Shown: positions 27,263-47,200 of the stretch, in pieces | Position numbering within the stretch: position 1 is the stretch's first letter | Layout of the letters: the number at the start of each line of letters is the position of its first letter | Source: a virus | Virus record (IMG/VR): IMGVR_UViG_3300035659_000003 | Location: 32,001-96,000 of that record | Length of the DNA: 64,000 bases | Direction: 5' to 3' (one strand) | Notes under the pieces: model-generated | Database searches by the model: none | What the model was told of the DNA's origin: nothing | What the model saw: only the letters and a program-made list of their open reading frames with translations | Position numbers and translations under genes: made by a program

Positions 27263-27654
27263 TCCGCCTCTGACTCCTGCGGCGCGAACGCTCCGGCGCG
27301 AATGGCCTCGACCGCCTCGATGTCGCGACCGTCAAGTGCCCTGTCGTCAAGCTCAGGATGCGTCCGCTCATACTCCATCAGCGTCAACGCACACCAAGCG
27401 ACCGACGCCAACACATGCTGGCCGTCCTTCGGGTCGAGTGAGACCCCCTTGCGGAACGTCTCCAGGTGCCGCATCATTGCGCCGATGACACGGCTCCAGG
27501 CCATGCCCTTGCGCCAGTTGTGATCGGTGTATTTGCGGGCACCCATCGTGTAGACGAACGCCACCGCCCCTAGTGGCAACGGGGGGATCAGATCATAGCG
27601 GAGTTTCTCCGCGTCGTTCTTCCAGGCCGGTAGTTTGGCCTTCGGGCCGCTCAT
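27259..27654 (-). CDS. dATP/dGTP diphosphohydrolase-domain protein (DUF5664-like)
   Basis: KLRYDLIP...GARKYTDHNWRKG...AMMRHL...H.LA motif. Confidence 0.8.
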   Translation of the reverse strand: MSGPKAKLPAWKNDAEKLRYDLIPPLPLGAVAFVYTMGARKYTDHNWRKGMAWSRVIGAMMRHLETFRKGVSLDPKDGQHVLASVAWCALTLMEYERTHPELDDRALDGRDIEAVEAIRAGAFAPQESEAE

Positions 27655-28948
27655 CACCAAGTCCTGTCCAGCTCCACCGGATAGGGATCGCTCGGCTCGT
27701 CGTCTAGAAACGAATCCTCCGGTGGCTCGCCCGTAGGAAACCCTCCACTCAGGACATAATCTGGGGAAGCGTAAGGGTCGTCGCGGGCCGCGTCGTCGAG
27801 GTCGAGTACAGGCCGATAGGCCCTGAACGGGGCCTTGTTGATGATCCTGACCGTAGTGGGGCTCCCTTGCCGCACTAGGTACTCTAGCGCCTTGCGGATT
27901 CCCCGCATCTCCTCCAGCATCTGCCGTTGCTGCTCGATACACATAGACTAAGCCTCCTCTATCTCTCGTGCCCAAGGTGGCACCTCGGTCAGTGGTTCCA
28001 GTTCCGGCACGAGGCCGCTGAATTGCTGCAAGACAAGGAACACCTGCAGCAGCACCGGCTGTGCATTGTCATAGGACGTGCGCCCCAGGCTGGAGACAAT
28101 CATCCAGGCGTCGTCGAACGTCAAGGCCAGCTCCTGCTTATCGGCGCTAGGGGCAGCCGCCGCACCGTATCCGGCGATCGCCGCTGTGGTGGTGACGCCC
28201 TTTGGAAAGGTCAGGGCCAGGATGATATCTTGCACCTTGCGGAGTAGATAGTGCACCTCCGACTCGTCCTTCCCCAGCACGTGAGGGCCGCTAATGCCGC
28301 GCAAGAGTTCATGGATGGCCCAGCCGTCAGTCAGGCTCACCCATATCGTCTTCGTATCGGACATTGGGCACCTCCTCCGATAAGGAATCTACCGCTAGCA
28401 CAATCGTCTCCTCGAACTCAGGGTGCTCAGCGCGGAGAAACTCCGTAACCGCGCCGCACTTCTTGCAGACGCCATGCTCGTAGAAATAATGACTCCCCAT
28501 CACCCATGTGGGCCGATCCATAATGTAGTGATGGACGCAGTTCGAGTCCCCGCCACGGACGTTGACTCGCTGTGAGGCGTGCTTACCCACGCGTCCACCC
28601 CGTCGCCGCCGCCAGACGCTCCTGAGCAGTCGCGTCCGGCAGGGTATTGATCTCGGGATCGGTGCGAGATAGGCCCAGGATGCGGTCGGTGCTCTTCTCC
28701 TCGGGGTCGCCCCGCTGCTCGGCGTGTTCTCGCATCTCCTGCGCCAACGTGTAGGCGGGCCGGATATGGTCGGAGAATGTGTAAACGTCCAGTGCTCCGA
28801 ACCGGCCTAGTGGCACACGCACCGTTACGATTTCCCACGCGTGCTCCCCGAAGGCGTAGCGCTCGACGGCGACAACGACGCCGATCGCCCGCAGCGCTCT
28901 CCGCTCAGCCGTGTGAAGGATTTCTGCTAGCTCACCGAGCCTCGTCAT
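27654..28948 (-). other. four short hypothetical genes
   Basis: ORFs 27654-27944, 27948-28364, 28327-28590 and 28583-28948, tightly packed. Confidence 0.5.
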
Positions 28949-32900: not shown

Positions 32901-34884
32901 CACCCTCCTTCTTCGCCCTGCGTATCATCGCTGCAAGCGCCGTGTGAAGGCGATCACGAATGGTCTCGAGCAAGCCGTCGCCGAGGTTGGAAAATTCTGG
33001 AATGTCGCCACGAGTGACTCTCTCCAGAATCTCCCGATAAAGGTCACGTGCTTCCGAGGGGTCGAGCCAGTCCACCGCCCCCACGCGCCCCGCTGCTGCG
33101 TGGCCACGCGCACGCCCGTGCTTCTTCTGATCATGCTTGCCTGGAAGGTGCTTCTCGATCTTCTTGCTCTCCGGAATGGAGCCGGAGCCAGTCGCGCGCC
33201 CAACGTGCGGGGTCTCCGCGCCGCCCTCGGAACCCTCGTAGCCAGTCTCCTGCCCTTCTTCGGAGGTGCCCTCTTCCGGCGTGATAGGCTTGATTGCCTC
33301 GCTAGGGGTTACGTCCCCCTCAGCCAGCCGAATAACGTCCCCGCCACGGCTCATCACAACGACCTCGTGCTGGCCCATGCCCTCCAACTCAGGCAGGGCA
33401 TCCGAGAGCAGGAACACCTGATCGACGGGCAGCTTCCTGGAGACGACCGATCCGTCGCCGTATCCCTCCGCTCCTGCCCAGTCCTCGGCCACCTTCATAC
33501 TCAGCGTCCACGATTCCAGCGGACGAGGGCGATACTCCTTGCCCGCCACCAAGTCCTCGTGCATCTTCCCCGAAACACCCCTGTGCAGCTTCACTGACTT
33601 CAGCCCTGTCTGTTGCAGTGCCTTCGAGGAGGCAAGGCGTAGAGCCTTCAACACCACGGGGTTCAGTGCATGGTCGACCTTGGGGTTCGCGCCCGCGATG
33701 CCGTCGATGTAGCTATCGGCGTCGTCCGACGGAGCGTCAGGCTTTCGGGATGCCAGGTGCTCCTTGGCGGCCCTGCGCCCCAGCAAGCGGTCAACCAGGA
33801 GCGTCCCGCCATCCTTGTCCCATTCCCAGAACCACACGAGGGCAGCAGCCTCGGCCTGCTCCTGTGAGACGCCCCAGTCCTTCAGAACACGATTGAACGT
33901 CCCTCGGATGCCGTGCACCCCCCAGTCTTTCTCCCGCCCTGCTTCAGGGTCGGCCTCATAGTAATGCCCGCCACGTGGCCCCTCTTCGACGTGCTCTCCG
34001 CCTGGCGGCTCCTCGCCCTCGCCAATGTAGATGCGCCCTTTCCTGGCTTGCGCCACGTAAGAAGGGATGCCTACGCGTACGCCGACGTTCTTGGGGTGGA
34101 TGTCCTGATCCAGATCGTCTAGCTCACTCCACTCCTCGCCGTGCGCTTTCTGAATCGGCCCTTCGCTGGTCTCAACGGCCTCAATCGCCAGGATCGCGTC
34201 AGTATTGTAAACGTAATAACTGCCGAGGCTCGCCCCGTCAAATCCAGCAGCGACAGTATTGCGCGTATAGGACTGTGCATCCCGCACTCCCGCCAAATCA
34301 AAGGCACTATCATACTGAGTCAGGAATCGCCCTCTGACCTTGGCCTGCAAGATCACCATGTCTGGCCGCATCTTCCCCGTCATGGGTGCGGTGAACCACA
34401 TGCGAGCCTTTCTCGCTGACGGCGCGAACGAGATGGCGTAGTCGTTCCGGTACCGAGGGCGGATATGCTGCAGGTGGAACCCCTCCCTCAATATCGCTTC
34501 GGCGCTCGCCCGCGTCGTCCCGTGATAGAGCGTCTTCGTCTCTAGTGGCACGGGCGCGCCCCGTCGTTCAGGCACGGGCCGCTTTGGGCTAGGCTTGTCA
34601 GGCCGTGTCCACTTGCGCGCTAGGCCTTCAGACGCCGATTCTGTGGCCCTGTGGGGCGAATCCTGGCCAGTCTGTGGCGAAGGGCGACCCTTCCCGCCTA
34701 CGTCGTAATAGCGCCCGCCACGAGGCCCCTCCTCGATATTGACGCCCTTCGGGGGTTGCTCGCCAGGCTGCAGGTAAACGCGACCCTTCGCTACCTCGCG
34801 AATGACCTCCAGATTGGGATCGGGAGCGACTACGAAATCTGTGTTCCCCTGTCGGATTCTTACTCCTTCGCGCCGTCTAGCCAT
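29920..34884 (-). CDS. MuF (head morphogenesis) domain polyprotein with three ADP-ribosyltransferase-like domains and a zincin metallopeptidase
   Basis: C-terminal WKLTLGAEHCATC...LPRDGSTICRSNCRC (MuF); TLYHGT (ART, His-type); LHRG..ESWT..QHEVVV and LVRG..LSSFA..EYEMLV (ART, R-S-E type); AHEYAH..SHYG..EMFAE (zincin). Confidence 0.8.
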   Translation of the reverse strand: MARRREGVRIRQGNTDFVVAPDPNLEVIREVAKGRVYLQPGEQPPKGVNIEEGPRGGRYYDVGGKGRPSPQTGQDSPHRATESASEGLARKWTRPDKPSPKRPVPERRGAPVPLETKTLYHGTTRASAEAILREGFHLQHIRPRYRNDYAISFAPSARKARMWFTAPMTGKMRPDMVILQAKVRGRFLTQYDSAFDLAGVRDAQSYTRNTVAAGFDGASLGSYYVYNTDAILAIEAVETSEGPIQKAHGEEWSELDDLDQDIHPKNVGVRVGIPSYVAQARKGRIYIGEGEEPPGGEHVEEGPRGGHYYEADPEAGREKDWGVHGIRGTFNRVLKDWGVSQEQAEAAALVWFWEWDKDGGTLLVDRLLGRRAAKEHLASRKPDAPSDDADSYIDGIAGANPKVDHALNPVVLKALRLASSKALQQTGLKSVKLHRGVSGKMHEDLVAGKEYRPRPLESWTLSMKVAEDWAGAEGYGDGSVVSRKLPVDQVFLLSDALPELEGMGQHEVVVMSRGGDVIRLAEGDVTPSEAIKPITPEEGTSEEGQETGYEGSEGGAETPHVGRATGSGSIPESKKIEKHLPGKHDQKKHGRARGHAAAGRVGAVDWLDPSEARDLYREILERVTRGDIPEFSNLGDGLLETIRDRLHTALAAMIRRAKKEGGYENFNAAVRIRDALFSVDGVLSQRAKDRSFSAKLEEQVGILTAGNSIDVRDDDARADLKQEIMERTAKGMERKLGVTPEQESENLDKLSYEAARFLNDYYEKVGSPVRISREGDNYRFRGGNRDELTGVRQTLTMALAEGWADAEDKMAKAAPFWAAARTLAPHFRDVYDPAKGVELSSSEKVAYYLTKTWAISSSDHRAPSVALQRVASEAFGVEDTTVAYVEHGSDEIDRIVSKHGPVLRAWVDSVYEDTQALLKELEMDEVVLVRGMGWDEAAKIPDWVSALPADEPTRTRAKLNPLSSFASEYSVATRFAIHHEEEQMLVAARVPRDKIFSTFRTGPGCAEEYEMLVIGGEIDVVARRAGGQELPAWEERFEQDMRHHNIELAAQEAVWLDEDMHNADWTKQTHDVFALQPASGVEKHLPGKHDQKKHGKHGGAHVRRSALIRHIRDINRHGGEAIPKKIHELFTALKIAEQHDFADVYVQDQPIVAEVLVLMPAPHGVPNAVWHTYSRDDMRRAMEDLAEAGELSPDDVGKAAGMTYVGYDEAEVSVLTLDAQSWGSAMGGELPSGPYDTMRAVIAHEYAHVMDDGTERRFSNSDTWLDAFHAAQETARGLPSHYGRDSSAEMFAECVAYMTISPTKFKRRFSGLYDAIAELLEWNPVEDEADTLNKDFGEELGIAPRKFVTTSDGRHIQIFVGGEVEKGAPTEPMDSRAHTGNAPEVTTGIVTTNQGVAGSQDVQDSRNAPITLAEIAHAEMLMRLAAMGINKARTAVDSDLPSRVYFKLDKRGKRRWPSPLERVNMEIGRTKKAMETATCALWRGEGDVDTWHAQMRAAVDDLYGKSAYASTLRLKETPDARQRARDNLMAELRHQHHYLDGFRDDLAAGKVKTEKQAIWRAKLYADGSAGLYHQTVSENLPQMKAHWKLTLGAEHCATCLEMATQSPWPANRMPRLPRDGSTICRSNCRCFLIYRKARPTFRPVRRKNPKKSPE
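31604..33158. repeat. identical 40-bp direct repeat (31604-31643 and 33119-33158) encoding EKHLPGKHDQKKH
   Basis: tgcttcttctgatcatgcttgcctggaaggtgcttctcga present twice, 1515 bp (505 codons) apart. Confidence 0.9.
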
Positions 34885-37800
34885 TAGTTGCGCTTCCTGG
34901 CGCGTCCCCTGCCAGTCGAGTCTCGAATCGTGAATATCCGATCAGCCCGCGCCGCCGCAGTAGACCTAGTAGCTGTTGATCTAGGCAGTTGCTCCAACCG
35001 CTGATCCTTCAGGAAGAACAAGGCACCGGCTGAAATCCTGGCCTGCCCCGCATCGTCTAGCTTCTGCCATTTCCTGGTAACTGCGCCCACCTTCCCAGGT
35101 GAGTCCGCTGCGCTGTAGTCGCGCCATACGGCAGGCATGTCGGGGTTGCGGTCTACTGTGAAGCGGTCATGCGCCGGAACGTCCCCGCCGCCCCGCGTCG
35201 GGTCGTGAGAGTGCGCGGGATTCTCTTCGGTGTCGTGCTTGGCCAGCAACCTGACCTCGCCGCGTGGGGCCTCTTCGAGTCTGCTCTTGTAGTCTGACAA
35301 TGCCTCTAGCCACGCATCCAGCAAGGATTCTGCCGTCCAGTGGGGATCGGGAACCCTCTCGCCCTGCTCCTCCCCCGCGATGCGCAGGCGCACCTGGGGA
35401 ATGGGTAGACCGGACTGATGAAGCGCCACCAGGAACAGCCCGAACTCCTTGGCGCTGGTGCCGAACCAGCTAGGCGCGTCCTCTAGCATCTTGTCGTACG
35501 CCTCGTTCGGCTGGGCTCCGCGCTTGACGTAGCGCTCGTAGATGGCAACCTGCTGCTGCACCTCATCCGTCTCCCACGGCGCGGTCTTGTCAGTGGCCTT
35601 TTTCAGCCCGAATCGCCATACCTTATTCACTTCTGCCAGATACTCCATGACAGCGTATGCCACCCGCATCGCGGGATCATGATCGTCATATATCCCGAAC
35701 ATGATGGGAAGGAACATCTCGGCCTGGTGACCAAACGATATCATCGTATCGATAGCGATTGCCTGCGAGCGGCGATCCGCGTAGCGATATCGCCTCAAGT
35801 CCTGGCGCACAATCTCGTCGAACTCTTCGGCCCAAAAATCGGCCTTGCTTTCGGCGGCAGGGTCGTCTGTCCCCACCGCCCATTCTCGCAAGCGGCGAGG
35901 AGCAGCTTCGGCAACGCGCTCTGCGACGCCGAACAACCGATCAACATCGACGTCGCTCGCCTGTCCTCTAGCCAAACGAGCATATTGCTCCAGAAAATCG
36001 GACATCGCTTCGAGTTGCTTGGGGTATTTCGTATTCCTGACCGCGTCCGCCAACTCTGGCACAGCGTCCACTAGCCTGTGCTGCGTCGGATCGTGCGAGT
36101 GCCCTGGGTTCTCCTCAGTCTCGTGCTTGCTGACCTTGCCGCCCTTGACGGGGTGCACCCAGATGATGTCGTCCTTGTTGTCCTTCTCCCACTTCGTGAA
36201 GCAAGCGTCACAGAACCACGCGATAGCCATGCCCTCGGCCCACTTCACTTCCTTCGTCGGCGGCTTATCGCAGTCCATGCACTTATCGCGCCTGGGGCGC
36301 GCCTTACTGGTCACGCCGATATCCTGCGTAACGGCACCGGACGTAGGCGTCGAATCTCCGATCCCGCCCGCCTTAACCTGCAGCGAGTCGGCCTGTTGAA
36401 CGTCCTCCAGCATCTGGATGGCCTGCTCCTCGCCAATGGCCTCCGCCACAGCCTCTACCTTTTCCTTAAGCTCCTCGGCGGAATCCGTGTCCCCGTCCGG
36501 CAGGGTCGGCCAGCGGTCATCCGCCAGCAGGCGCAGGTCTGCGTCTCCGAGTTCTCCTAGCCCCTCCATAATACGCGCGACCAGCTTGACCCGCTCCGGC
36601 ACCTCGCCCTTGGCCAGCAGCGCCGCGTCGTCCGCCGGAACCTTACGGGTTGCCAGGCCCAGGGACTCGACCTTCTTGCGGAAGGCGTCTAGCGCGTCGG
36701 TGATGGCGTCCGAGAGGTCAATCCGCTCCTTGCGCGTTAGGTGCCCCAGCGCCCGCAGGCGATCCATTGCGTCCGTGTAGGACTGATGTATCTTGCTCTC
36801 CGCGATGTCAATCAGCGTCGTCTCGGCCTTGTCGACCTTCCCGCCACAGGTTAGGCAAGACGTCCGGCGGGCGTCGGCGGACTTGGAGAGCACCACCAGT
36901 TTCGCATCTTGGTTTACGCCCAATTCGCAAATGGTTATTTCGTAAAATACTATGCGTGAGATCAGCCAGAAGCACTTCCCGTCCTGGCACGTGTAGTGAC
37001 GGCTCTCCAGCGGGGCATCGCCGGAGATGGAGAACGAGGCCAGCTTGCCATCCTCGATGTCCTTGATTACCTGGTCGACGATCGGCGGGCGGTTCGGGTC
37101 GGTGCGTATCTTGATCACGCAGAACAGCCCGATGTCGTCCACCGTGGTCTTGAAGACCTGCCCAGTCTTGGGGTGCGTCCACTGTGGCAGCACCTCGCCC
37201 ACCTGGACGTTGCTGTGGAGCAGCATCGCGTTCCGGTATTTCGGCTCGGCCAGGAAGCGCACCAGGTCTTCCCGCATCGCCTCCTTGGTGATCAGGTGGT
37301 GCTCCTTGTCGATCACCTGTGGCGAAGCGTACCCGCCGACGACGTACTCCTTCTCCTCGTCGTCCTCGGCCTTGTAGAGCGTGTGCACCGCGCCATAGGC
37401 CATCCGCGTGCCCTGTGGGACGGCCTTGGTCAGCACCTCGGGGGTGTAAGGTTCACCGTCCGGCGAAAGGGCCGCTTGTAGTGAACACGTGCCGCCCTTG
37501 CAGGCCGCGTTGTATTCCTGGTACTCCGTCCCCTCGCCCGTCTCCGGTGCTACGATTGAGGTGTCCTGCGCCGATGCGGAGTGAGTGTCACCCTGCTTAG
37601 CGGTATAATCTGTGTGCAGTTTGTCGCCGCTGTGTGGACTTTCTGCACGCGTAATGTACCGCGCAGCCTCGAAGCCCTTCTGAAACGCCTCGCCGTGCCA
37701 TCTCTGCTCGTGCTTCTCGATCTTGTCGGACGGGTCGGTGATTAGGACGCCGATTACCTTCACGACATGCCCGTAGGCACGCATGTGGGCGGGCGCGGTG

Positions 37801-40687
37801 GAGCCAGGGCGCGTCCTTGCGAACTTCTCCACCTTGAATCCGGCGGGCTCGAGGGCGGCCTTGACCTTATCAGCCCGTCCAGTCTCCAACTCAAACCCCT
37901 GCGCATGAGCTACCAGGCGACCGCCAACCTTGGCGGATCGGAGCAGGTTCTCTATCTCGCTCTTACGCGTCCAGACGTTCAGGTAGGCGGGCTTACCGCC
38001 GCCCTCCTGCGTCGGGTCGTGAGAGTGCTCTGGGTTCTCCTCGGTGTCGTGCTTCTCAACCTTCCGGCGGCACCGCGCGCAACCAGGAGCGATCGGCCCT
38101 ACATCCGCGCCAGTCATAGCGTCGGCAGGTGGGCCAGCGAAGTCCTTTCTCAAGCCCTCCGCGTGCTGCACTTCCCGCCTGAGAATCTCAAGGAATGCAG
38201 CCGCCCCGTCGCCTCCATAGACGGTCTCACTGATCCGCCGCCCCTTGTGGTCGGAGATGAACCAGGACAGCCCGCGTGCCGTCTTGCGCGCCAGCAGCGG
38301 ATAGGCTGTGCCGTTGATGGTCACCACTTCTTGAACGTGCGGAAGGATACGACGCAGTTGAGCCATATCTTCAGGAGACCAGTCCGACATCCCGAGACCC
38401 TTCTTGTTGCGGATCGCCCATGCCCAGCCCTCTGGCCGCTTGGCAACGTGAACCTCCTCCCGCCCCTCCTCTTTCAGGCGCTCCCGCCAGCGCTTGACGC
38501 GGTCGCGGGCCGCCTGCTTGCGTGCCTCCCGCCCCTTTGGGGTGGGCTCCGTCTTATCCACATCCAGCAAGCCCTTATGCTGCAGTTGACGCTGCGCCAT
38601 AGTCAGAGCATCAGCGAGCAGGTTATGCCGCGCCTTGTGCTTTTCAGTCGTGGAGCTGGCCTGCCACATATCGCTCCAGTTAATGAACGCCTGATTGGTA
38701 TGAGCCACCTCTTCGATTAGATCGTCTGGGATATCGGGGAAGGCTTGGCGGAGATATGCCGCGATGACCTCGACCCTGATGGCCCCATCGCGCTGATCAG
38801 GATTGAGAGTCTCTTTCCACTCCTTGATCTTCGCGTGAAGGGTATCTCGAGTATGCATCCCCCCCACAACGGTAAGTGCGGCCCATTCGATGTTTTCCAC
38901 CTCGTCGAAGTATGTCCCGACGACAGCCCGCGCCTTCGCGTCCAATGCGCTCCACCCAAACACATCCGTGAAGAGGCGCTCCGCCAGATCGGGCTGCAGC
39001 CATTCGGTGAGTGCTTCCTCGATCAGGGCGTTCGTGCCCCCGTATCCCCACCGGCCAATCGGGTTGACCGCATGACAAGTCTCATGTGCAATGGCCGGAA
39101 CCACGAACGTAGCACTCCAGTCTGTCGCGCCGCCCAGCACCGCCTCTAGGTGCCTGACTGCGCTGGGGCCGAGGATGAGCTTCCCGCTGTCATAGGCCGC
39201 ATAGGGGAGCGCTGTCGTAATCAGCTTGCCGCCGACCTTCGTACCTTCTACGCCCCACAGAACGGCCCAGCGACCCTCGTCGTACCCCTCCACGCTGTGA
39301 ACGTTGCAGCTCCAGCCGATGGCCTTAGCAGTCCTCAAGCACGACTTAACAGCTTCCGTTGCCTTCTCGCTGAGGTTCTCGACGTGGACGAGGTCTCCGC
39401 GTGCTTCAGCACGACGATGCTCCTCGCCACGTTCTCGCCAGACACGGTCGAGGTCTTCGGTTAGATAGTAACGCCCCCCGCGAGGGCCATCCTTGACATC
39501 AATGCCCTCTGGAGGCTCCTCGCCAGGCTTGAGGTAGACACGAGCTTTCTCGATCTTCTCGTCCGTCGCGCGCGCCTTGTGCCCAAGCATCTTGATATAG
39601 GCACGGGCCTCTTGCAGCGCGATCTCGCTCTTGATATAGGCGGCGAGTTTCAGAGCCTTAGTGAAGAGCTTCTTGGCGTCCGCTGCGCTGGCCAGCACCG
39701 CCACCTCGCGGATTCGCTCGACGATCAGCGCATCACGCAACAGGGAATCTGCCTTCTGGACGCGCGCCGTCCCCGCCTTGCCGCGCCCCTCGATCACAGG
39801 CAGCGCCTCCTCGTGGCTGAACCAGGATTCAGGTAGATCGGCTTCGCGCTCGGAAGGCTTACTGAAGCGGGGCTTAGGTAGCTCCGCGCCTGGAGCAATA
39901 ACGTTTGAGCGGTCGTGCTGCTTCTCCAATGGGGCTCCGAGGAACAGCTCCACCTCGTTGTGGTAGTCCTCTATATAGCGGTCGAGCCGCTCCTTGAACT
40001 CCTGCAGAACTCTGTGCGGTATGTGCATTAGAAGCTCACCGTTCCTACATATGAGTGCTGGGCCAGTTCGCTCTTCCACCCAACACGCTCGTGAAAACCG
40101 TCGATCACGTAAACGTCGGCCTGACGCGTGTCCGTGTTCAATATAATCCCGTAGGTTTTAGCCTTCAAGCGGATACCACGTTCTCGGCCTATTGCCATGA
40201 GCACCTGTTGCTTGCGCTCAATCGTGGCCTTCCCCTTCACACGGTTCCAGGCCGCCTTCTCCTCCGGTGCTGCGGCCTTCAACCACGCAGCCTCTGTAGG
40301 GCCTGGCTGCCCAATCGTCGCGCGCCAGTGCTGCGCCGATTCGCCGTTGGATACCAGCCCCGCCTTTACCTCCACAACGTGATGATCTGCCATAACGTCT
40401 ACGGGGAAGTTCTGTGCTTCCTCTACGCTCAAGCGCCGTGCGTCGCCAAAGCCCTGATCGAGCAAAAGCTGAAGTGCGATCTTCTCGCCAATCTCGCCGG
40501 TCTCAAGCTTGCTGGGCTTATGTGCCAGTGCGACGGGCTTGCCGCCGAAGACTCGCTCCTGTGGTTCTGGTTCGCCCGCGCTCGGGTCATGTACGCTCTC
40601 GTAGTAAAGTCCGCCGCGCGGCCCCTCTTGAACGTGAACACCCTGTGGCGGCTTCTCGCCTGGTTTGAGGTAAACCTTGAATTGCTT
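33958..40687 (-). repeat. dispersed coding repeat [VI]Y[LI]xxGExPPxGxxxx[ED]GPRGGxYY (4 copies in 3 genes)
   Basis: Copies near 33958-34041, 34705-34788, 39465-39548 and 40601-40687. Confidence 0.9.
34884..40028 (-). CDS. polyprotein with an internal HK97-type prohead protease and a zincin domain
   Basis: VVGGYASPQVIDKE..LLHSN..VGEV..LASFSISG..YEITIC..GVN (protease, about 36880-37370); AHETCH..IEEALTE (zincin); likely start at 40028 by TAATG coupling. Confidence 0.82.
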   Translation of the reverse strand: MHIPHRVLQEFKERLDRYIEDYHNEVELFLGAPLEKQHDRSNVIAPGAELPKPRFSKPSEREADLPESWFSHEEALPVIEGRGKAGTARVQKADSLLRDALIVERIREVAVLASAADAKKLFTKALKLAAYIKSEIALQEARAYIKMLGHKARATDEKIEKARVYLKPGEEPPEGIDVKDGPRGGRYYLTEDLDRVWRERGEEHRRAEARGDLVHVENLSEKATEAVKSCLRTAKAIGWSCNVHSVEGYDEGRWAVLWGVEGTKVGGKLITTALPYAAYDSGKLILGPSAVRHLEAVLGGATDWSATFVVPAIAHETCHAVNPIGRWGYGGTNALIEEALTEWLQPDLAERLFTDVFGWSALDAKARAVVGTYFDEVENIEWAALTVVGGMHTRDTLHAKIKEWKETLNPDQRDGAIRVEVIAAYLRQAFPDIPDDLIEEVAHTNQAFINWSDMWQASSTTEKHKARHNLLADALTMAQRQLQHKGLLDVDKTEPTPKGREARKQAARDRVKRWRERLKEEGREEVHVAKRPEGWAWAIRNKKGLGMSDWSPEDMAQLRRILPHVQEVVTINGTAYPLLARKTARGLSWFISDHKGRRISETVYGGDGAAAFLEILRREVQHAEGLRKDFAGPPADAMTGADVGPIAPGCARCRRKVEKHDTEENPEHSHDPTQEGGGKPAYLNVWTRKSEIENLLRSAKVGGRLVAHAQGFELETGRADKVKAALEPAGFKVEKFARTRPGSTAPAHMRAYGHVVKVIGVLITDPSDKIEKHEQRWHGEAFQKGFEAARYITRAESPHSGDKLHTDYTAKQGDTHSASAQDTSIVAPETGEGTEYQEYNAACKGGTCSLQAALSPDGEPYTPEVLTKAVPQGTRMAYGAVHTLYKAEDDEEKEYVVGGYASPQVIDKEHHLITKEAMREDLVRFLAEPKYRNAMLLHSNVQVGEVLPQWTHPKTGQVFKTTVDDIGLFCVIKIRTDPNRPPIVDQVIKDIEDGKLASFSISGDAPLESRHYTCQDGKCFWLISRIVFYEITICELGVNQDAKLVVLSKSADARRTSCLTCGGKVDKAETTLIDIAESKIHQSYTDAMDRLRALGHLTRKERIDLSDAITDALDAFRKKVESLGLATRKVPADDAALLAKGEVPERVKLVARIMEGLGELGDADLRLLADDRWPTLPDGDTDSAEELKEKVEAVAEAIGEEQAIQMLEDVQQADSLQVKAGGIGDSTPTSGAVTQDIGVTSKARPRRDKCMDCDKPPTKEVKWAEGMAIAWFCDACFTKWEKDNKDDIIWVHPVKGGKVSKHETEENPGHSHDPTQHRLVDAVPELADAVRNTKYPKQLEAMSDFLEQYARLARGQASDVDVDRLFGVAERVAEAAPRRLREWAVGTDDPAAESKADFWAEEFDEIVRQDLRRYRYADRRSQAIAIDTMISFGHQAEMFLPIMFGIYDDHDPAMRVAYAVMEYLAEVNKVWRFGLKKATDKTAPWETDEVQQQVAIYERYVKRGAQPNEAYDKMLEDAPSWFGTSAKEFGLFLVALHQSGLPIPQVRLRIAGEEQGERVPDPHWTAESLLDAWLEALSDYKSRLEEAPRGEVRLLAKHDTEENPAHSHDPTRGGGDVPAHDRFTVDRNPDMPAVWRDYSAADSPGKVGAVTRKWQKLDDAGQARISAGALFFLKDQRLEQLPRSTATRSTAAARADRIFTIRDSTGRGRARKRN

Positions 40688-41209
40688 GGCTACCGTTCCG
40701 CTGCCCCGTCGAACAATGATGCCCCATCGCGCGTCCTCCGTAACGTTGAAGCCCGCATCACGCAGGGCCTGCGTTGCCCGCGACAAAAGCCGCGCGTAGC
40801 GCTCGCCGTCGTAAACGGTCTGATGGAGCTGAAGCTTGTATTCGCCCTCCGCCCACTTCGTTACATACAGACCATCGCGCCGAGTTGCCTTACCAGGTTT
40901 CTGCCTAACTCGATACTTCTCCTGTGGATCGCGCTCGTATTTTGTTGACACAGGCAGCCCTGCCGCCTCCAACGCACTGTGCAGATTTCCACCTGTAGGC
41001 TTCGGCGCGGCCCTAGTGGGGTGGGGGGCCTGCGTCGGGTCGTGGGAGTGTTCGGGGTTCTCCTCGGTGTCGTGCTTCTTGACGCGACGCTTCCCCAAAG
41101 GACGATCTACGCCGCGCAGGGCGTAGGTGCTGCGGTCGGAATCTGTGCCGTAGTGCGCGAGCTTCTCCGCGCGCTTGGCAATCTCGCTTAGCGACAGTCG
41201 GCGGGCCAT
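40028..41209 (-). CDS. two-module protein with a C-terminal PD-(D/E)xK nuclease-like domain
   Basis: TGEIGEKIA...FPVDVM...VVEVKAG restriction-endonuclease-fold motif behind a GPRGG tag; first module behind a KHDTEENP tag. Confidence 0.7.
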   Translation of the reverse strand: MARRLSLSEIAKRAEKLAHYGTDSDRSTYALRGVDRPLGKRRVKKHDTEENPEHSHDPTQAPHPTRAAPKPTGGNLHSALEAAGLPVSTKYERDPQEKYRVRQKPGKATRRDGLYVTKWAEGEYKLQLHQTVYDGERYARLLSRATQALRDAGFNVTEDARWGIIVRRGSGTVAKQFKVYLKPGEKPPQGVHVQEGPRGGLYYESVHDPSAGEPEPQERVFGGKPVALAHKPSKLETGEIGEKIALQLLLDQGFGDARRLSVEEAQNFPVDVMADHHVVEVKAGLVSNGESAQHWRATIGQPGPTEAAWLKAAAPEEKAAWNRVKGKATIERKQQVLMAIGRERGIRLKAKTYGIILNTDTRQADVYVIDGFHERVGWKSELAQHSYVGTVSF

Positions 41210-41220
41210 GAGTCGGCCCC

Positions 41221-41919
41221 CTAGCAGCAGTGCTTACGTTCGAGACGCTTCTCGATGTGCTCTAGGTCTACGATGACGCCGCGCTTAAGTTGCTTCTCTA
41301 GTTTCTGAGCCACAGCGCGCAACCTTGTGCCGACCTCGTTAATGACGATCCGCTTTTCCTCGTAGGCCACAACGGGCTCCGCGTCGGGCCGTGCCGCTGC
41401 CTTCCGGATCGGGGCGAGGTCGATATCCTCACTCCCGCATCCAGGACAGGAACGTCGGCCTGCCGGAATCTTGCGCCCGCACTCCTGGCACCAGAACTGC
41501 TTGTCGATCTTTGCTTTGTCCATCTTGTTCTCCCGTGCGAGATGATTGTGGGCCGCCCGCAACCAGTCCAGCCCGCCTCGCCTGTCTTCCCTCATAAAGT
41601 TCGTCGCCGCTGCGTGCAGAAGTTGGCGGACTTCCTCCGACACCTTGCCACGCAAGTCATCCCGCCGCTGCAGAATCACGCCTGCCATTCGCTTCGGGCC
41701 TATAAGAGCCATGTGATCTTCTATCTCAGGCAGGGACAGCCCCTTCATGGGGTTCCGCGCCGCACGCGGCTTCGAGAAGGACTCAGAGGGTGACCGCAGC
41801 CCGTGCACGGCCTCGCCCGCGTGGGTGTGGTGCTTCCGCGCCTCCTCGTGGCAGTAGTCGTGACCGCCGTGACGGTGGTGACCAGGGGGACAAGGCTTAT
41901 CGACGAGGCGATCAGGCAT
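41221..41919 (-). CDS. modular head-cluster protein with His/Cys tag and zinc ribbon
   Basis: CPPGHHRHGGHDYCH; CQECG..CPGCG; RBS GGAG before MPDRLVDK. Confidence 0.65.
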   Translation of the reverse strand: MPDRLVDKPCPPGHHRHGGHDYCHEEARKHHTHAGEAVHGLRSPSESFSKPRAARNPMKGLSLPEIEDHMALIGPKRMAGVILQRRDDLRGKVSEEVRQLLHAAATNFMREDRRGGLDWLRAAHNHLARENKMDKAKIDKQFWCQECGRKIPAGRRSCPGCGSEDIDLAPIRKAAARPDAEPVVAYEEKRIVINEVGTRLRAVAQKLEKQLKRGVIVDLEHIEKRLERKHCC

Positions 41920-44653
41920 TCGCTCTCCCGCCACCTGGACGGTTCTGCCGCTCAGTACCCATTCCAGGTGTGCGCCACGCACGCTGTGCCTGTGCCCTGC
42001 GCCCAAGCTCGGCGTTGACAGCCTTCAGACGATCGATATACTCCTGATGTACGTCGGGGGCCAGTTGCCTGGCCCGATCGCCCTTCAGGTAGTTGACCAG
42101 CGCGTCGTAGTGACGCGAGAGCTTCTTATCGTCCATGCGCTGCACGTCTGCGTGGGCCTGATCGCCCGCCTCGGGCTTCGGCTTCACCTTGCTTGCCGCA
42201 CGCCGCAGGATGTCGACGACCACCTTGGTCTGCATTCTCTCCTGCGGAGAGTCATCCTTGCCCGCCATGATACGATCCTTGGCGTGCTGCTCTATCCGAG
42301 CGGCTGCTCCGGCAAGGCGCTTGTAGGCGTCCGCCGGATCGCGGGTATCCTTGAGCCCCTCCTTGAAGTGGGCCAGAACCCGCTCCAACCCGCCAACGCC
42401 CAGAGCGCGGGCCTGCACAACAGCCTCGTCTAGAACGCCGTGGGCGTCCTCCAAGGCACCGGCAGGCTTCATCATTGTCTCCCCTCGGTGCGCGCGCTTC
42501 ATGGGGTGGCAGTAGTCATAGGGCTCGTGCTTGTGCCATCCGGCGGGGCAACCGCCGACGGCCTTCTTGATCTCATCAATCGCCTTGTGCGCCTGCTGAT
42601 AGGTTTCGTGAGCGCGCGTCCCGTAGGGAGGAACCTCATGGGTGCGGCTGACTGCAGGAGGCACGTCGGGCCTCGGCTTACCTACGTGACGGTGACTCGC
42701 AGACGGGGGTTTTGGCTTCAGTGGCTCTAGGGACAGGCGCTTATCGATCTTCTCAACCTCTTCCGCGATCTTCTGGTAGAGGTGCTTCGGCCCCCACTCC
42801 TGGGGATACTCGTCAGGGTGCTGCTTATCCAAGTGCCGCCGCCTCTTCTCGCGCGCGTCGCGCCGCCGCTCAATGTCGCCGTGAATCTTGTCACGCTGGC
42901 TCTGCAGCCGCTGTGCCGTCCGCGCGCGATCGTGCGTCTCTGCCCTGCGTGCTGCGTAAGACTGTGCGCTGCCATACGGGGAATGAGAATGCTCTGGGTT
43001 CAAGTCACTCACATGCTTTTCCACACGGCTCAGGATTGTCTCGCAGTCGTCGTGAAGTGCGCCAGTCTCGTGCTTTTTCAAGGGATATGACGACCTCGGC
43101 CCAGACACAGACTGAGGGCCTGGCCCCAATATCGGGCGCTTCACGCCTTCCGCCTTCTCCTCGTGACTGTGGACGAACGTTCCGCCCTTGTGGTCATGTG
43201 CTACTCCGTGGTGGCGGTGCTCGCGGGCTGTCCGACCGAACTTGGTGATGGGCTCGTACTCGGCCCGCCCGCCGCGCTCAGGCTTCGGATCGAAGATGGC
43301 CGTGTGGAGCCTGCGATTGGCTTCTGCCTCCGACTCGGATTTGCGCGGGTCGTGAGAGTGACTAGGATTCTCCTCGGTCTCGTGCTTTGCCAGCCGCTGC
43401 CCGTGCGCCGTCCCGCGCTGCTGTCGTGGCTTGGTCTGGCCGTGGGGCTTGCGCGAAGGCTTGACGCCCTTGATCTTCGTGCTCCGCCGCGACTTCTTCT
43501 TATCCAAGTCGTGGTGCTCCTGTGCGTGCTCGGAGAGAATCTCCGCAACGGACTGAAGCGTCCTACCGATCATAGTAACGTCCGCGAGTTCGGGGGTAGC
43601 CTCATCTGTGCCGCCACCGTTCTTTTTCACCCGCTTCGGCACGAACTTAGCAGGGCCGACATCGGGGGAGTCAGGAGCAACTGTTCTCCCGAACGCCCTA
43701 TCCTTGCGCCGCGTCTCCCTGGCTGCGTCCGCTGGTGTCCAAGGATGTGATCTAATATTGGCGGCTCGCCAGGCCCCAGGGTCTGGGTGCGTCGGTCTAG
43801 CCTTCTTAACGGGCTGCGGCTTGGCCTGCGGCCCACGAGGGTGCCAGCCCCAGGCAGGCGCATCAGGGCCTAGCTCGTGCTTCTCGAGTGCCCTCAGCGT
43901 CCTTGTATCGTGCCACTCTGCCACACGCGCGACATAAGGACGGTTCTTCTTGTAGTAATCGAGAATCTGCTTCCGCGCGTCCTTCTCGTTCTTGGCCTTC
44001 ACATTCTTAGTCGACGTCTGCTGCTCTGGCCCCTTGACGGTATACTCCACGTAGCCAAAGTGCACGCGGTAGGTTTTGAGGTCGTCCTTCTTCTTCCCCT
44101 CCGCGCCGCCGCCCTCCTTTGTCGGGTCGTGAGAGTGCTCGGGATTCTCTTCAGTCTCGTGCTTCTTCATCGGCTTGTTACGCGGATTGAACCGTGAACC
44201 TGCCCACCCGCTCGGAGGCTTGCTCGTGTCACCAGGAGCCCTCCCTGCGTAGCGCTCTTCTGCAGAGGGCTTCTTAGGCAGCTCCCCACGCTTAGGATCA
44301 GCAGGGCTCGGAACAAAATGCTGCTTACCGACCCGCCCAGGCCCCCTAGCGAGCCCTGGGTGTGGCGCGGCCAACTGACGACGCGGTTGCGCGGGGGCAA
44401 CACCAGAAAAACCCTTGCCTTGATAGACCTTGGCCGGAATACCCTGCGGCTGTGGGTTCTGCACCGGCCCCTTCGGGACGGTCGGCTTCTTACCGAAGAG
44501 CTTGTTGATTTCAGTTATCCCCGCCCGAACCGCATCCAGAGCCTTATCCTCCACTTTATGTTTGATCGAGCCACAGTAGGCATCGGGATCGTCCTTGTCG
44601 CGGTTGCGCGATACGCAGTCATCGAAGTTGGTGTAACCGGCAAACGGCATCAC
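41912..44653 (-). CDS. basic, His/Pro-rich modular polyprotein
   Basis: 913 aa; N-terminal PFAGYTNFDDCV..DKDDPDAYC module; about 20 x-x-K|H/A/Q boundaries; three His tags. Confidence 0.7.
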   Translation of the reverse strand: MMPFAGYTNFDDCVSRNRDKDDPDAYCGSIKHKVEDKALDAVRAGITEINKLFGKKPTVPKGPVQNPQPQGIPAKVYQGKGFSGVAPAQPRRQLAAPHPGLARGPGRVGKQHFVPSPADPKRGELPKKPSAEERYAGRAPGDTSKPPSGWAGSRFNPRNKPMKKHETEENPEHSHDPTKEGGGAEGKKKDDLKTYRVHFGYVEYTVKGPEQQTSTKNVKAKNEKDARKQILDYYKKNRPYVARVAEWHDTRTLRALEKHELGPDAPAWGWHPRGPQAKPQPVKKARPTHPDPGAWRAANIRSHPWTPADAARETRRKDRAFGRTVAPDSPDVGPAKFVPKRVKKNGGGTDEATPELADVTMIGRTLQSVAEILSEHAQEHHDLDKKKSRRSTKIKGVKPSRKPHGQTKPRQQRGTAHGQRLAKHETEENPSHSHDPRKSESEAEANRRLHTAIFDPKPERGGRAEYEPITKFGRTAREHRHHGVAHDHKGGTFVHSHEEKAEGVKRPILGPGPQSVSGPRSSYPLKKHETGALHDDCETILSRVEKHVSDLNPEHSHSPYGSAQSYAARRAETHDRARTAQRLQSQRDKIHGDIERRRDAREKRRRHLDKQHPDEYPQEWGPKHLYQKIAEEVEKIDKRLSLEPLKPKPPSASHRHVGKPRPDVPPAVSRTHEVPPYGTRAHETYQQAHKAIDEIKKAVGGCPAGWHKHEPYDYCHPMKRAHRGETMMKPAGALEDAHGVLDEAVVQARALGVGGLERVLAHFKEGLKDTRDPADAYKRLAGAAARIEQHAKDRIMAGKDDSPQERMQTKVVVDILRRAASKVKPKPEAGDQAHADVQRMDDKKLSRHYDALVNYLKGDRARQLAPDVHQEYIDRLKAVNAELGRRAQAQRAWRTPGMGTERQNRPGGGRANA

Positions 44654-44659
44654 TAGCTC

Positions 44660-47200
44660 CTACGGCAGGGCGTGAATCCGTGATGCCCCGCGCCGCCTAC
44701 CCTCAGCCATTGCCTGCCGCTTGGCGTCGGCGTACGAGCCGTGGATGAAGTGAGGCTTAGGGTCGTCGTCATACTGGAATGCCCATCCGCCCGTGCCTCT
44801 CGGCTTCTTCCCGTGGCTCCACTCAAAGCGCTCGGTTGCGACGTGCCTCGGCCCAGCCCCCTTGCCTGCGCGCGGGTCGTGCTCGCTGTGCGGGCTGTTC
44901 GGCGTGTCGTGCTTCTTTACTGGTGCGGTGGGGTCTGTCGGCACGCGCCGAGTCGGGGTGACGCCCCAGTCGCTACCAGATGTCCATACCTTACCGGATG
45001 GGCTCGACGCAGGGGCGGCCCCTGGCTTACGCTTCTCCAGCGCATCTGTTGCCGCGCGTAGCTCAGCCTGAGCCTTAGCGACTTCAGAATTCATCTTTTC
45101 GGCTTTTCTCTCCACGGGCACCTCTCGCGGGTATCCCGCTGCAGGCCGCTTGCCCGTCCACGCCGGACTAGAAGAGGTGTGCTCAATCTGCCCCATACTT
45201 CCCATTTGCGGGTGATAGGCACGAGCATGACTGTGCGTGTCGCCTGTCTCTTGATGCGTGTGCTCGCGTCCCTGGACGCCGTGCGGGTCAGCCAGCGGAG
45301 TCTTGCGAGCCTTGGAGAACGCGGGGCTCATCTGATCGCGCTTATGCATTGACCCACCAGGAAGCGTGTCCTGGGGCGGGGGCTTTGTAACCCCTGCCTT
45401 GGGGTCTCTGAAGTGCCGCTGCAGATCACGCTGTGCGGACGACATCCCACCCACCAGCTTCTTCGGCTTAGGCGCAGGGCCATAAGGTGCCCCGCCGTGC
45501 GGGTGAGGGCCATGCTCCTGTGGAGCGTCGTGCTTGTCTACCTCGGCCTTCTTCGCATTAGCCATTCCACCACGAGCGTGACTGGCCGAGTGGCCGAACT
45601 TGCGCTCGTGCTCACTGTATCCAGAACCATAAGGCCCAGGCGTCCGGCTTTCCGGCGCGCGGGGCTGCGGCGGAGAAATCTTCACCTTCCCGTGCGCGCC
45701 GTAATCGTGCTCGTGGGTCTCCCCACCAGGCCCCATGTGACCGTGCAACCTTCCCTGTCCGCCGCGAGGCCCTCCGTGGGGGGTCTCCTTCTCCAGCGCG
45801 GACGTTGCCGCACGCAGGGTTGCCTGTGCCTTGGCAAACGTAGGGCTCATCTTCGTGACTAGTGGCTGGACTTCGGTATGTGGCGTAAACTTCCGAGATG
45901 CGGGATGCTTTTGCGTCACAGGGTGACCCTCGGACGCCCCCTCGTGGCGATGCTGCCCAGGAGGACTGCCGTGCGTTGTGCGAAGCTTGCTGGGATCATA
46001 GGTGTCCTTCTGCACCTTCGCCTTCTTCGTCGGCGTAGCGGATGGGCGGGTTATTTTATAAGGATGATAATCCGGAGCCGGTACTTCGCTAGTGCCGCGC
46101 TGCCTGCGAAACGGGCTGCGCGTCGAAGGGGCGTACCCGCCCTGGTGCCTCACCGACATCGTTCCCTGCTCACCTTGGGCCTTCATCGCTGGTTCCGATC
46201 GCGTGGGTGTCGGGGATGGATGGCTCCCAGGGCGCGGCCCAGGGACAGGAGCGACTGTAGACTGGGGCTGTGGAGTTGCGGGCTCGGCCTTCTTCGCAGG
46301 AGAGAAGCGTCCAGGGTAGTCCTGGGGATTCTTCTTGGGGCGAGGCGGGTCTGGCTTGGCACGCGGCCCCGCGCGATTACCGCCACCGCGTCCCGTCAGC
46401 CATCGCAAACGCTCTGGGGACGAGCGAGGTGCGGGAGCATCCTCGGCCTTGTCCATAAGGTAGCTTGAGGTGCTCTTCTGCCCCGTGCTGGTGGGCTTAC
46501 GCGGACGGCCAACCGGCTTGAAGCCGGAGGTCAGCGGCTGCGGATGTGTGTGGCGCTCGCCCTCGGGTGCTCGACTTCTCGATCCGAAGTGCGGGTGCGT
46601 CTGTGGACGCGAGTAGCGCTTCTTGTCCCCATAATGCTTCTCAAGCTCCTCGTCCTCGGCCTTGTTCATGCCCCCTCGGATCGAATGTGGGGCTCTCGTC
46701 GCGTAAGAGTCAGCACTAGTTCCCTTCTTCGACTTAGGCGGCCAGTGCGGAATACCAACTTCCTTGTCCTGGGCCTTCCACATGGCCTCGCGCCGTTTCG
46801 GTTCGCGCCGGACGGTCTTGCCCTTATCCAGGTCGCCTACGGCCCGAACGGACTTCCGCAGCGCAGATAGCGCCTTAGCCAACTCCACCGTATCCGGCAG
46901 CTCCTCACCGTCCTCGGCCTTGCCCACAACTTCCTTCAGGAACAGCTCCAGGGCCTGGTTGAGCTTCGCACCCTTGGCGAGCCCAGGCATCTGAAAGATA
47001 CCAGCACCCGTCACGGCGTAGTAGGAACCGCCCTCGCGCCCCCACAACTCGGCATAGTTCGCCCCGTTGTCGGCGGACACGTAATGAACAATTCCGCCCT
47101 CGGCACCCTTGGACAGGTTCGGCCAGCGCGATGCGGTGCTGAGTGTGATGCCCATAGGCTGCACAGCCTTCGCGAGCCGACTCAAAAATGTCTGGATCAT
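44660..47200 (-). CDS. basic, low-complexity modular polyprotein
   Basis: 846 aa; more than 20 hydrophobic-x-K motifs spaced about 20-50 aa apart; P/G/R/H-rich. Confidence 0.7.
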   Translation of the reverse strand: MIQTFLSRLAKAVQPMGITLSTASRWPNLSKGAEGGIVHYVSADNGANYAELWGREGGSYYAVTGAGIFQMPGLAKGAKLNQALELFLKEVVGKAEDGEELPDTVELAKALSALRKSVRAVGDLDKGKTVRREPKRREAMWKAQDKEVGIPHWPPKSKKGTSADSYATRAPHSIRGGMNKAEDEELEKHYGDKKRYSRPQTHPHFGSRSRAPEGERHTHPQPLTSGFKPVGRPRKPTSTGQKSTSSYLMDKAEDAPAPRSSPERLRWLTGRGGGNRAGPRAKPDPPRPKKNPQDYPGRFSPAKKAEPATPQPQSTVAPVPGPRPGSHPSPTPTRSEPAMKAQGEQGTMSVRHQGGYAPSTRSPFRRQRGTSEVPAPDYHPYKITRPSATPTKKAKVQKDTYDPSKLRTTHGSPPGQHRHEGASEGHPVTQKHPASRKFTPHTEVQPLVTKMSPTFAKAQATLRAATSALEKETPHGGPRGGQGRLHGHMGPGGETHEHDYGAHGKVKISPPQPRAPESRTPGPYGSGYSEHERKFGHSASHARGGMANAKKAEVDKHDAPQEHGPHPHGGAPYGPAPKPKKLVGGMSSAQRDLQRHFRDPKAGVTKPPPQDTLPGGSMHKRDQMSPAFSKARKTPLADPHGVQGREHTHQETGDTHSHARAYHPQMGSMGQIEHTSSSPAWTGKRPAAGYPREVPVERKAEKMNSEVAKAQAELRAATDALEKRKPGAAPASSPSGKVWTSGSDWGVTPTRRVPTDPTAPVKKHDTPNSPHSEHDPRAGKGAGPRHVATERFEWSHGKKPRGTGGWAFQYDDDPKPHFIHGSYADAKRQAMAEGRRRGASRIHALP

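Follow-up and report, generated by a model that had tools for sequence, protein, structure and literature searches.

Why should one and the same short peptide stand in front of four different modules in the head genes of a single phage? The question is raised by a stretch of 64,000 nucleotides (referred to here as the window), which corresponds to bases 32001-96000 of the 109,910-bp uncultured phage record IMGVR_UViG_3300035659_000003, a record with direct terminal repeats. In three large proteins of this window (P0001, P0002 and P0003), a peptide with the core GPRGGxYY, here called the tag, precedes modules that an original prediction, made from the letters alone, had read as toxic enzymes marked by a small hairpin leader for packaging or translocation. 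By its sequence the tag is an undescribed and widespread family, and the role proposed for it is that of an N-terminal adaptor of protease-released cargo cassettes in capsid-internal polyvalent proteins. This role is one that we infer, and it seems to us evenly poised between right and wrong.

The 31-residue motif hydrophobic-x-K-x-[RK]-[VI]Y[LI]xPGExPPxGxxVxxGPRGGxYY[ED] was found in exactly four copies by a six-frame regular-expression scan of the window, and the whole 109,910-bp genome, when scanned with a profile, returned the same four tags and none further, all on the minus strand (Table 1). Both the number of copies and their placement two to three residues after a Lys site (VAK, ARK, IEK and VAK) are therefore as first described. 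A fifth GPRGG in the window lacks the remaining motif. All four tags agree at thirteen of about 30 positions. At the DNA level the copies differ in their synonymous third positions and have no long identical run in common, which indicates that selection acts on the peptide; the same synonymous differences rule out a DNA-level repeat or a recent duplication as the origin of the tags.

The tag extends far beyond this genome. A profile of the four tags matched 43 proteins in a collection of 5.8 billion proteins, many of them with two to four copies, and 21 loci were found in IMG/VR viral contigs, some with three to six tags across consecutive head open reading frames (ORFs). With a profile of 34 tags, run with HMMER against 1.84 billion cluster representatives, 1008 clusters were reached at E<=1e-3; of these, 194 score E<=1e-10 or better and 7 score E<=1e-30 or better. 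Chance is excluded as an explanation, since the same motif, including the K at its fixed spacing, recurs in these 1008 protein clusters. Only 8 loci were found with the four-tag alignment among 185,579 prokaryote genomes. Two contigs assigned to metagenome-assembled genomes (MAGs), L026 (JACOXG010000010.1, 109,932 bp) and L027 (CAYSNL010000001.1, 109,520 bp), one labelled Candidatus Daviesbacteria and the other Woesearchaeota, are represented by two 10-kb stretches with identical tblastx matches. They are distant relatives of the phage studied here: several genes show 37-50% amino acid (aa) identity, and a 727-aa ORF has a tag at its residue 13. Both are probably viral contigs binned into cellular MAGs.

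No model in Pfam or NCBIfam scored the tag when both the tags and the whole proteins were scanned, and in PHROGs only phrog_24083, a family of unknown function, overlaps it. The open literature searched for the motif (GPRGG together with phage) yielded only unrelated papers without mention of it, and the main text of the paper on polyvalent proteins (PMC5512222) mentions neither the motif nor glycine-rich leaders or linkers.

A consensus was drawn from 262 unique tags anchored on the G-G-Y-Y core, so that the near-100% values of the core arise partly by construction. Positions 1-4 are hydrophobic (63%), x, K (73%) and A/G/S, and are followed by R/K (93%), V/I, Y (93%) and L/I/V (95%) at positions 5-8. 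Positions 9-13 read x-P-G-E-x, with A/P at 14 and P (98%) at 15. The next seven positions, 16-22, are variable except for G (84%) at 17 and V at 20; positions 23-27 are G (100%), P-R, G (100%) and G (98%), and positions 28-31 are x, Y/F, Y (96%) and E/D. As the K stands at a fixed spacing in 73% of the 262 tags, the Lys site is part of the family-wide pattern.

The position of the tag within proteins is strongly polar. A single tag is found in 68 of 179 tag-bearing proteins, two tags are found in 91, three in 17 and four in 3. In 64 of the 179 the first tag is no more than 40 residues away from the N-terminus, and several proteins open with it; at the C-terminus, a last tag this close to the end is seen in only 10 proteins, some of which are cut off at contig ends. 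Being often at the very start of stand-alone proteins and seldom C-terminal, the tag behaves as the leader it was first taken for. Median spacing is 264 residues from tag to tag and 258 residues past the last tag, which corresponds to one domain. In the 30 residues after the tag, G/P/S/T/E/D/K/Q make up 63% and hydrophobic residues 19.5%, compared with 51.5% and 29.2% in module bodies. The composition suggests a flexible, linker-like stretch of ~10-40 residues behind the tag, followed by a domain-sized module.

Tags are also found behind proteins of the head itself, being C-terminal to the portal in the fusions P0010, P0014, P0043 and P0044, to the S78 protease in P0020, P0038 and a 1764-aa frame in the record of L007, and to MuF in P0031. 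Within the window, P0002 contains a putative HK97-type (S78) prohead protease domain that matches phrog_23555 'head maturation protease' (E 1.1e-10) and, below the cut-offs, Pfam S78 (E 0.029) and TIGR01543 (E 1.1e-5); it is presumed to be the processing enzyme. P0001 ends in a Cys-rich domain that is MuF-like by motif only, Pfam Phage_Mu_F giving no match to P0001, and that is presumed to be the capsid anchor of the polyprotein. P0001 also holds a third module resembling ADP-ribosyltransferases (ARTs) at aa 905-1020, which passes the Pfam cut-off for DRAT (27 bits against 25), and a second zincin motif, HEYAH. At least two effector-type domains thus occur in head context in each protein, three ART-like modules and an HExxH motif in P0001 and HExxH together with S78 in P0002. 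Both proteins are giant and combine several effector domains with head-morphogenesis domains, and their relatives carry ART-PolyVal, InPase, Zeta and other members of the polyvalent repertoire. Given their ART-like and zincin-like modules, the putative S78 domain and the MuF-like domain, P0001 and P0002 belong with the polyvalent proteins of phage heads as understood by Iyer et al. 2017 (PMC5512222).

Structure prediction with AlphaFold2 (AF2) and the 34-tag alignment gave a three-stranded β-meander, in which the strands (VYL, the VxV stretch and xYYE) are joined by the PGExPPxG and GPRGG turns; the predicted local distance difference test (pLDDT) of the core is 83-84. The AF2 model of P0003 shows the same strands for tag 4 at aa 178-180, 193-195 and 201-204. 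The small β structure expected from the sequence was thus recovered by AF2, as a three-stranded meander instead of a simple hairpin. WW domains resemble the tag in having three strands, a PxG and a YY, and this is left as a resemblance only.

The same core occurs in a viral adaptor domain already known to be attached to packaged enzymes. In PBCV-1, the kinases A278L and A282L, which bear the PBCV basic adaptor (PF08789), number ~400-530 copies in each virion and fractionate with the packaged DNA (PMC3281028). Both the tag and PF08789 contain the core G-x-x-hydrophobic-x-x-GPRGG-x-YY, and both are small β-rich modules fused to enzymes. When the 34-tag alignment was compared by hhalign with PF08789-positive sequences, a probability of 96.9% was obtained over 23 columns (E 1.4e-10), while 60 column-shuffled controls reached at most 1.9%. 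The phage tag differs in possessing an extra N-terminal strand ([RK]-VYL-x-PGE-x-PP) and in being without the C-terminal N-x-x-G-x-K-x-Y strand of PF08789. It is furthermore approximately neutral rather than basic, lies N-terminal to its cargo, has several copies within a polyprotein and comes together with a Lys site. The scan of the 185,579 prokaryote genomes also led to Bacteroidota proteins ending in KGRTIYEGPRGGRYYINSNGNKTYI that pass PF08789 (E 2.4e-8), those of L030, L032 and L033 scoring 26-34 bits against a gathering score of 20.4 bits. Contigs L029-L033 are chromosomal, and in their proteins of ~200-237 aa a long low-complexity middle part rich in K/T/A is combined with PF08789 at the C-terminus; the N-terminal part of the L032 protein has weak, sub-threshold matches to membrane-protein families. 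These Bacteroidota proteins represent a cellular context for the GPRGG-YY core.

The four modules behind the tags of the window had been named from sequence as two ARTs, a zincin and a nuclease. The nuclease stands by its fold; the other three names agree with everything observed, though the evidence for them lies below the curated thresholds. Payload 4 is confirmed as a PD-(D/E)xK nuclease by the fold of its AF2 model (domain pLDDT 82-92): VIA-align places it with the restriction endonuclease NhoI (Z 9.2, root-mean-square deviation 2.8, 106 aligned), the homing endonuclease I-Ssp6803I (Z 8.6) and Hjc resolvases (Z 7.5-7.8), Foldseek finds 3ndh with a probability of 0.99, and E242, D271, E280 and K282 are invariant in 18 homologues. 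Payload 1 falls among PARP, Exotox-A and ART-PolyVal clusters of the ESM Atlas (18 of 30 matches PARP; top score 0.93), and weak sub-threshold matches to RNA 2'-phosphotransferase (E 0.54 and E 0.034) lie on its LYHGT stretch. It has no Pfam match, and its homologue search gave a single true relative, P0104, with 31% identity. A His-type ART is suggested as a lead, all of its support being sub-threshold. Payload 2 carries HRG (aa 434-436), SWTLS (458) and QHEVVV (505) in the right order and reaches DRAT in Pfam at E 0.016 (14.8 bits, under the 25-bit cut-off); its comparison with the DRAT-positive third ART by BLASTP was not significant. These features are suggestive of an R-S-E ART. All ESM Atlas matches of payload 3 are zincin families (top score 0.89), which is suggestive of a zincin, and no Pfam or PDB sequence match was obtained for it. 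Sequence searches of the PDB with the four payloads returned chance-level matches only.

A broader view of the cargo was obtained from relatives. Topo IB, ART-PolyVal and ADPrib_exo_Tox domains begin within 3-30 residues of the tag, and recognisable cargo behind tags comprises ADPrib_exo_Tox, ART-PolyVal, DRAT, Topo IB, PolyA_pol, GNAT, Zeta, kinases, ATLF and Peptidase_Mx. Pfam domains were tallied in 76 proteins whose first tag lies within 60 residues of the N-terminus, hence with every domain downstream of a tag. DRAT was found in 4, Topo IB, PolyA_pol and ADPrib_exo_Tox in 3 each, and GNAT in 2; Zeta toxin, PI3/4-kinase, Fam20C, AAA_33, HD, ATLF, Pentapeptide repeats and HEAT were found once each. 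About 70% of the 76 proteins have no known family, and the cargo of P0042, composed of pentapeptide repeats, is non-enzymatic. The claim of an enzymatic payload is accordingly borne out for the recognisable cargo, which consists mostly of enzymes, but not for the ~70% of modules without a family or for P0042. Two outcomes that would speak against the original prediction, namely tags standing mostly before non-enzymatic sequence and downstream regions devoid of ART, zincin or nuclease folds, were looked for, and neither was found. Calling the enzymes toxic was an assumption on its part; as a set, the cargo resembles the repertoire for host takeover and anti-defence that phage polyvalent proteins carry. 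The original prediction is on the whole supported in part.

The tag is one of several short leaders that follow a hydrophobic-x-K site. A His-rich leader, K-H[DE]TEENPxHSHDP, is present in six copies in P0003, P0002 and a 913-aa ORF. A third leader, KHLPGKHDQKKHG, occurs twice in P0001 in the context [IV]EK-HLPGKHDQKKHG, once ~340 residues upstream of the DRAT-like third ART and once ~150 residues upstream of the HEYAH zincin, and the HLPGxHDQ motif is found in 6 of the 179 tag-bearing proteins. The P0003 nuclease (aa 205-393) has homologues, P0046-P0062, with 43-96% identity, and at least five different short leaders stand in front of it. P0046 has a GPRGG-type tag directly behind a common 45-residue N-terminal leader, P0047-P0049 have a His-rich K-HDTPRSPHCxHDP motif in its place, and others have CHxxSGPKGGQFCS, HPRDERGRFA or GSGNFxHxGRPGxxGGS leaders. 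Compared with P0046, P0003 contains an inserted cassette composed of a His-rich tag and a 120-aa module. The leader swaps fall exactly at the hydrophobic-x-K border. Because the same nuclease occurs with different leaders exchanged at the K site, the evolutionary unit is tag plus linker plus cargo, starting right after the Lys. The type of tag appears to follow the phage lineage and not the cargo, and the comparison points to a larger range of leader 'dialects' in the head cargo of phages, each specific to a lineage. None of the 179 proteins combines the GPRGG tag with a Gly-rich GRPG, GRF or GPKGGQFC dialect, as is expected if each dialect matches a lineage-specific partner.

Under the adaptor reading, a cassette would consist in order of the hydrophobic-x-K site, a β-meander of ~27 residues ([RK]-VYL / PGExPPxG / VxV / GPRGG / xYYE), a flexible linker and a domain-sized effector. 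Such cassettes would either stand alone or follow in series on proteins that form part of the procapsid (portal, S78 protease-scaffold, MuF-like domain). The polyproteins would be co-assembled into the procapsid by virtue of their portal-, protease/scaffold- or MuF-like parts or of short leaders at their N-termini. Once inside, the embedded HK97-type S78 protease would cut after the Lys, each released enzyme would keep the β-meander at its new N-terminus, and the meander may then hold the enzyme in the head, on the inner face of the shell, the scaffold core or the packaged DNA, up to the moment when enzyme and genome are expelled together. We infer that the Lys is the site of cleavage, that the enzymes are retained in the capsid and injected, and that the meander has a binding partner there. 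The reading draws on the polarity of the tag and the linker behind it, on stand-alone proteins whose tag is N-terminal, on dialects specific to lineages, on the setting among head proteins and on the parallel with PBCV.

Several observations weigh against the adaptor reading. Fusion to portal, protease or MuF would by itself secure the packaging of a cassette, and in such proteins an address is not strictly needed. Enzymes without a tag are present in the same proteins of the window (the third DRAT-like ART, the HEYAH zincin and the S78 protease), and in relatives NUDIX, PI3/4-kinase-like and DUF192 modules lie upstream of the first tag, without a tag of their own. In the context of P0003 the pLDDT of the tag is only ~57-62, and a Foldseek search of the tag-alone model against the PDB gave nothing below E 3. 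The Pfam model PF08789 has no match at E<=10 to the four tags or to the whole genome in six frames, and the link to the PBCV adaptor appears as a short, motif-dominated profile-profile match. With a profile-profile match and no Pfam match, the tag would be a relative of the PF08789 core, or convergent on it, and not a member. As the tags of the window have an approximately neutral net charge, the variant in which they bind DNA is weakened.

The main rival to the adaptor takes the meander for a P'-side exosite, by which an HK97-type protease would recognise the hydrophobic-x-K site, without any later role. HK97 gp4 cleaves the capsid protein after a Lys, and the fixed spacing of the K in 73% of tags, the S78 domains within the same polyproteins and the position of the tag between modules, where cuts are needed, all agree with such a role. 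Many stand-alone proteins, however, start with the tag at residues 1-4 or after 5-20 residues, with little to cut off. The K site of this genome stands before two further, unrelated motifs, so that the P' side is not a single recognition sequence, and S78 was detected in only three of five other tag-bearing viral records, which are incomplete and in which the proteases are divergent. Recognition alone is on this evidence an unlikely account of the tag. The probability falls lower again for a removable propeptide of T4 type, by which the tag would target cargo to the procapsid and then be cut off downstream, after GG or after YYE. Its N-terminal position, the flexible linker behind it and the invariant Gly-Gly would suit a propeptide, but conservation ends at YY[ED] with no conserved cleavage-like site behind the tag, the conserved Lys site lies upstream and not downstream, and internal tags would end on the C-terminus of the previous module, which would make their polarity meaningless. 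Least probable of all is a neutral joint, a stable folded spacer without a binding partner that serves as a junction for cassette shuffling in the manner of VENN/TG junctions: close relatives do swap cassettes exactly at the tag border and polyproteins do carry multiple tags at domain-sized spacing, yet identical runs in the DNA of the four copies are short, synonymous sites differ, and homologous recombination would find little to act on, the residue-specific conservation in the 262 tags (P 98%, G 100%, G 98%, Y 96%) points to a specific interaction or fold, the N-terminal tag of a single-domain protein has nothing to insulate, and the mutual exclusion with other dialects argues for a matched partner.

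Among known systems, the internal proteins of T4 and Alt, an ADP-ribosyltransferase, possess an N-terminal capsid-targeting sequence (CTS), with which they are loaded into the prohead, and which is removed by the prohead protease before the proteins are injected with the DNA. Like the tag by its position, the CTS is a short N-terminal peptide on non-structural proteins, among them an ADP-ribosyltransferase. The two have no sequence similarity. The CTS lies N-terminal to its cleavage site and is removed, whereas the Lys site is upstream of the tag, which would stay; T4 loads single proteins and not multi-cassette polyproteins; and its protease is gp21, with L-x-E specificity. In encapsulins, cargo is loaded into the interior of an HK97-fold shell by a short conserved peptide joined through a flexible linker to an enzyme. 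The composition of the linker after the tag would fit this logic of peptide, linker and enzyme, by analogy. Encapsulin peptides are usually C-terminal and linear and dock in a pocket, whereas the tag is a predicted folded β-meander, and encapsulins have no protease step.

MuF polymorphic toxins (Jamet et al. 2017, PMC5576092) have an N-terminal MuF and one C-terminal toxin, whereas P0001 has its MuF-like region at the extreme C-terminus with four or five modules before it, and is not a protein of that class. The PT-VENN and PT-TG modules (Zhang et al. 2012, PMC3482391) resemble the tag as short conserved modules that are N-terminal to variable effectors and mark an exchange point. They bear no sequence relation to it and belong to toxin systems that bacteria secrete, in which a single terminal toxin is accompanied by an immunity gene, in contrast to the phage-head context and the several cassettes per protein of the tag. 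The comparison with trafficking domains of polymorphic toxins, drawn when the tag was first noted, is replaced by the PBCV basic adaptor (PF08789), the T4 capsid-targeting sequence and the encapsulin cargo-loading peptides, which fit better. The tag would fit a known concept, that of addressed, protease-processed capsid cargo and of polyvalent proteins, in a form made new by the retained N-terminal β-meander, the multi-cassette polyproteins and the interchangeable dialects.

Table 1. Features of the tag-bearing region and of other genes discussed (positions are those of the window).
Feature	Position	Strand	Details
P0003	40028-41209	minus	393 aa
P0002	34884-40079	minus	1731 aa
P0001	29920-34884	minus	1654 aa
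Tag 1	34702..34794	minus	P0001 aa 31-61; VAK + GR + VYLQPGEQPPKGVNIEEGPRGGRYYD; GPRGG core 34714-34728
Tag 2	33955..34047	minus	P0001 aa 280-310; ARK + GR + IYIGEGEEPPGGEHVEEGPRGGHYYE; GPRGG core 33967-33981
Tag 3	39462..39554	minus	P0002 aa 176-206; IEK + AR + VYLKPGEEPPEGIDVKDGPRGGRYYL; GPRGG core 39474-39488
Tag 4	40598..40693	minus	P0003 aa 173-204; VAK + QFK + VYLKPGEKPPQGVHVQEGPRGGLYYE; GPRGG core 40610-40624
Fifth GPRGG	45758-45772		without the remaining motif
Payload 1, putative H-type (PARP/exotoxin-A-like) ADP-ribosyltransferase	34099..34587	minus	LYHGT aa 119-123
Payload 2, putative R-S-E ADP-ribosyltransferase	33205..33927	minus	KLHRG aa 432, SWTLS aa 458, QHEVVV aa 505
Payload 3, putative zincin metallopeptidase	38670..39464	minus	HETCH aa 332-336, EEALTEW aa 354-360 of P0002
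Payload 4, PD-(D/E)xK nuclease by predicted fold	40031..40552	minus	E242, D271, E280-x-K282 of P0003
His-rich leader K-H[DE]TEENPxHSHDP, 6 copies at module borders	35199-44164	minus	always after hydrophobic-x-K; P0003 41036-41077; P0002 38013-38054, 36087-36128, 35199-35240; 913-aa ORF 44123-44164, 43346-43387
846-aa ORF	44660-47200		looser variants of the His-rich leader
Third leader, two copies in P0001	33127-33153, 31612-31638	minus	after hydrophobic-x-K
Putative HK97-type (S78) prohead protease domain in P0002	36855..37382	minus	~aa 900-1075; LLHSN (His), SFSISG (Ser)
Cys-rich C-terminal domain of P0001	29923..30498	minus	CATC...CRSNCRC; phrog_24776, unknown function, E 2.8e-15
Small α/β module of P0003	40694-40987		aa 75-172
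Portal gene	54992-56782		upstream of the tag-bearing head genes
Candidate major head protein	8086-9507	minus	phrog_24667, E 1.9e-10, partial match (PHROGs)
dATP/dGTP diphosphohydrolase N-terminal domain and NT5C-like 5'-nucleotidase genes	27259-27975, 25200-26117	minus	PF18909, E 8e-28, for the diphosphohydrolase domain

The G+C content is ~0.61, and nearly every gene lies on the minus strand. Six large minus-strand ORFs follow one another from 47200 to 29920, and the last three bear the tags. If the ORF of P0002 is taken to start at its first GTG, its first 52 nucleotides (40028-40079) coincide with the end of P0003 in another frame, and the stop of P0002 overlaps the ATG of P0001 by one base. 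The small module of P0003 between its His-rich and GPRGG tags has as best structural matches the neck of phiCD508 (Z 7.2) and the Mu terminator (Z 6.7), with generic ferredoxin-like folds about equal, and these matches are too weak to interpret. PF05065 did not detect the capsid protein. The candidate major head protein has hydrophobic-x-K sites near its N-terminus, LNK-A at aa 10-13 and LQK-D at ~aa 49-52, which could be maturation cuts and give nothing firm on the specificity of the protease. Just downstream of the head polyproteins lie genes for a dATP/dGTP diphosphohydrolase N-terminal domain and for an NT5C-like 5'-nucleotidase; enzymes of such types accompany genomes with modified bases, for example 2-aminoadenine. 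P0003 found no match by tblastn among 50,697 GenBank phage records.

Taken more widely, the GPRGG-YY β-meander could be an ancient portable adaptor of virion cargo, with a core common to tailed phages and giant eukaryotic viruses, that docks arbitrary enzymes to the packaged genome or to the capsid interior. Together with the His-rich KHDT, HLPGxHDQ, GRPG, HPRDxxGRF and GPKGGQFC dialects it would then form part of a general, lineage-coded addressing system for injected effectors. We regard this extension as conceivable but doubtful.

How tailed phages beyond T4 choose the head enzymes that they inject is largely unknown, and the tag provides a sequence handle on this choice. Since the borders of cassettes are marked by it in no fewer than 1000 protein clusters, hundreds of candidates for injected effectors can be delimited, ~70% of them without a known family. 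A shared adaptor principle with the virion-packaged kinases of chloroviruses is hinted at. If the adaptor role is true, the tag would be a tool for loading chosen proteins into phage particles; and if the addressing system is true, a matching tag on any protein would load the corresponding capsid.

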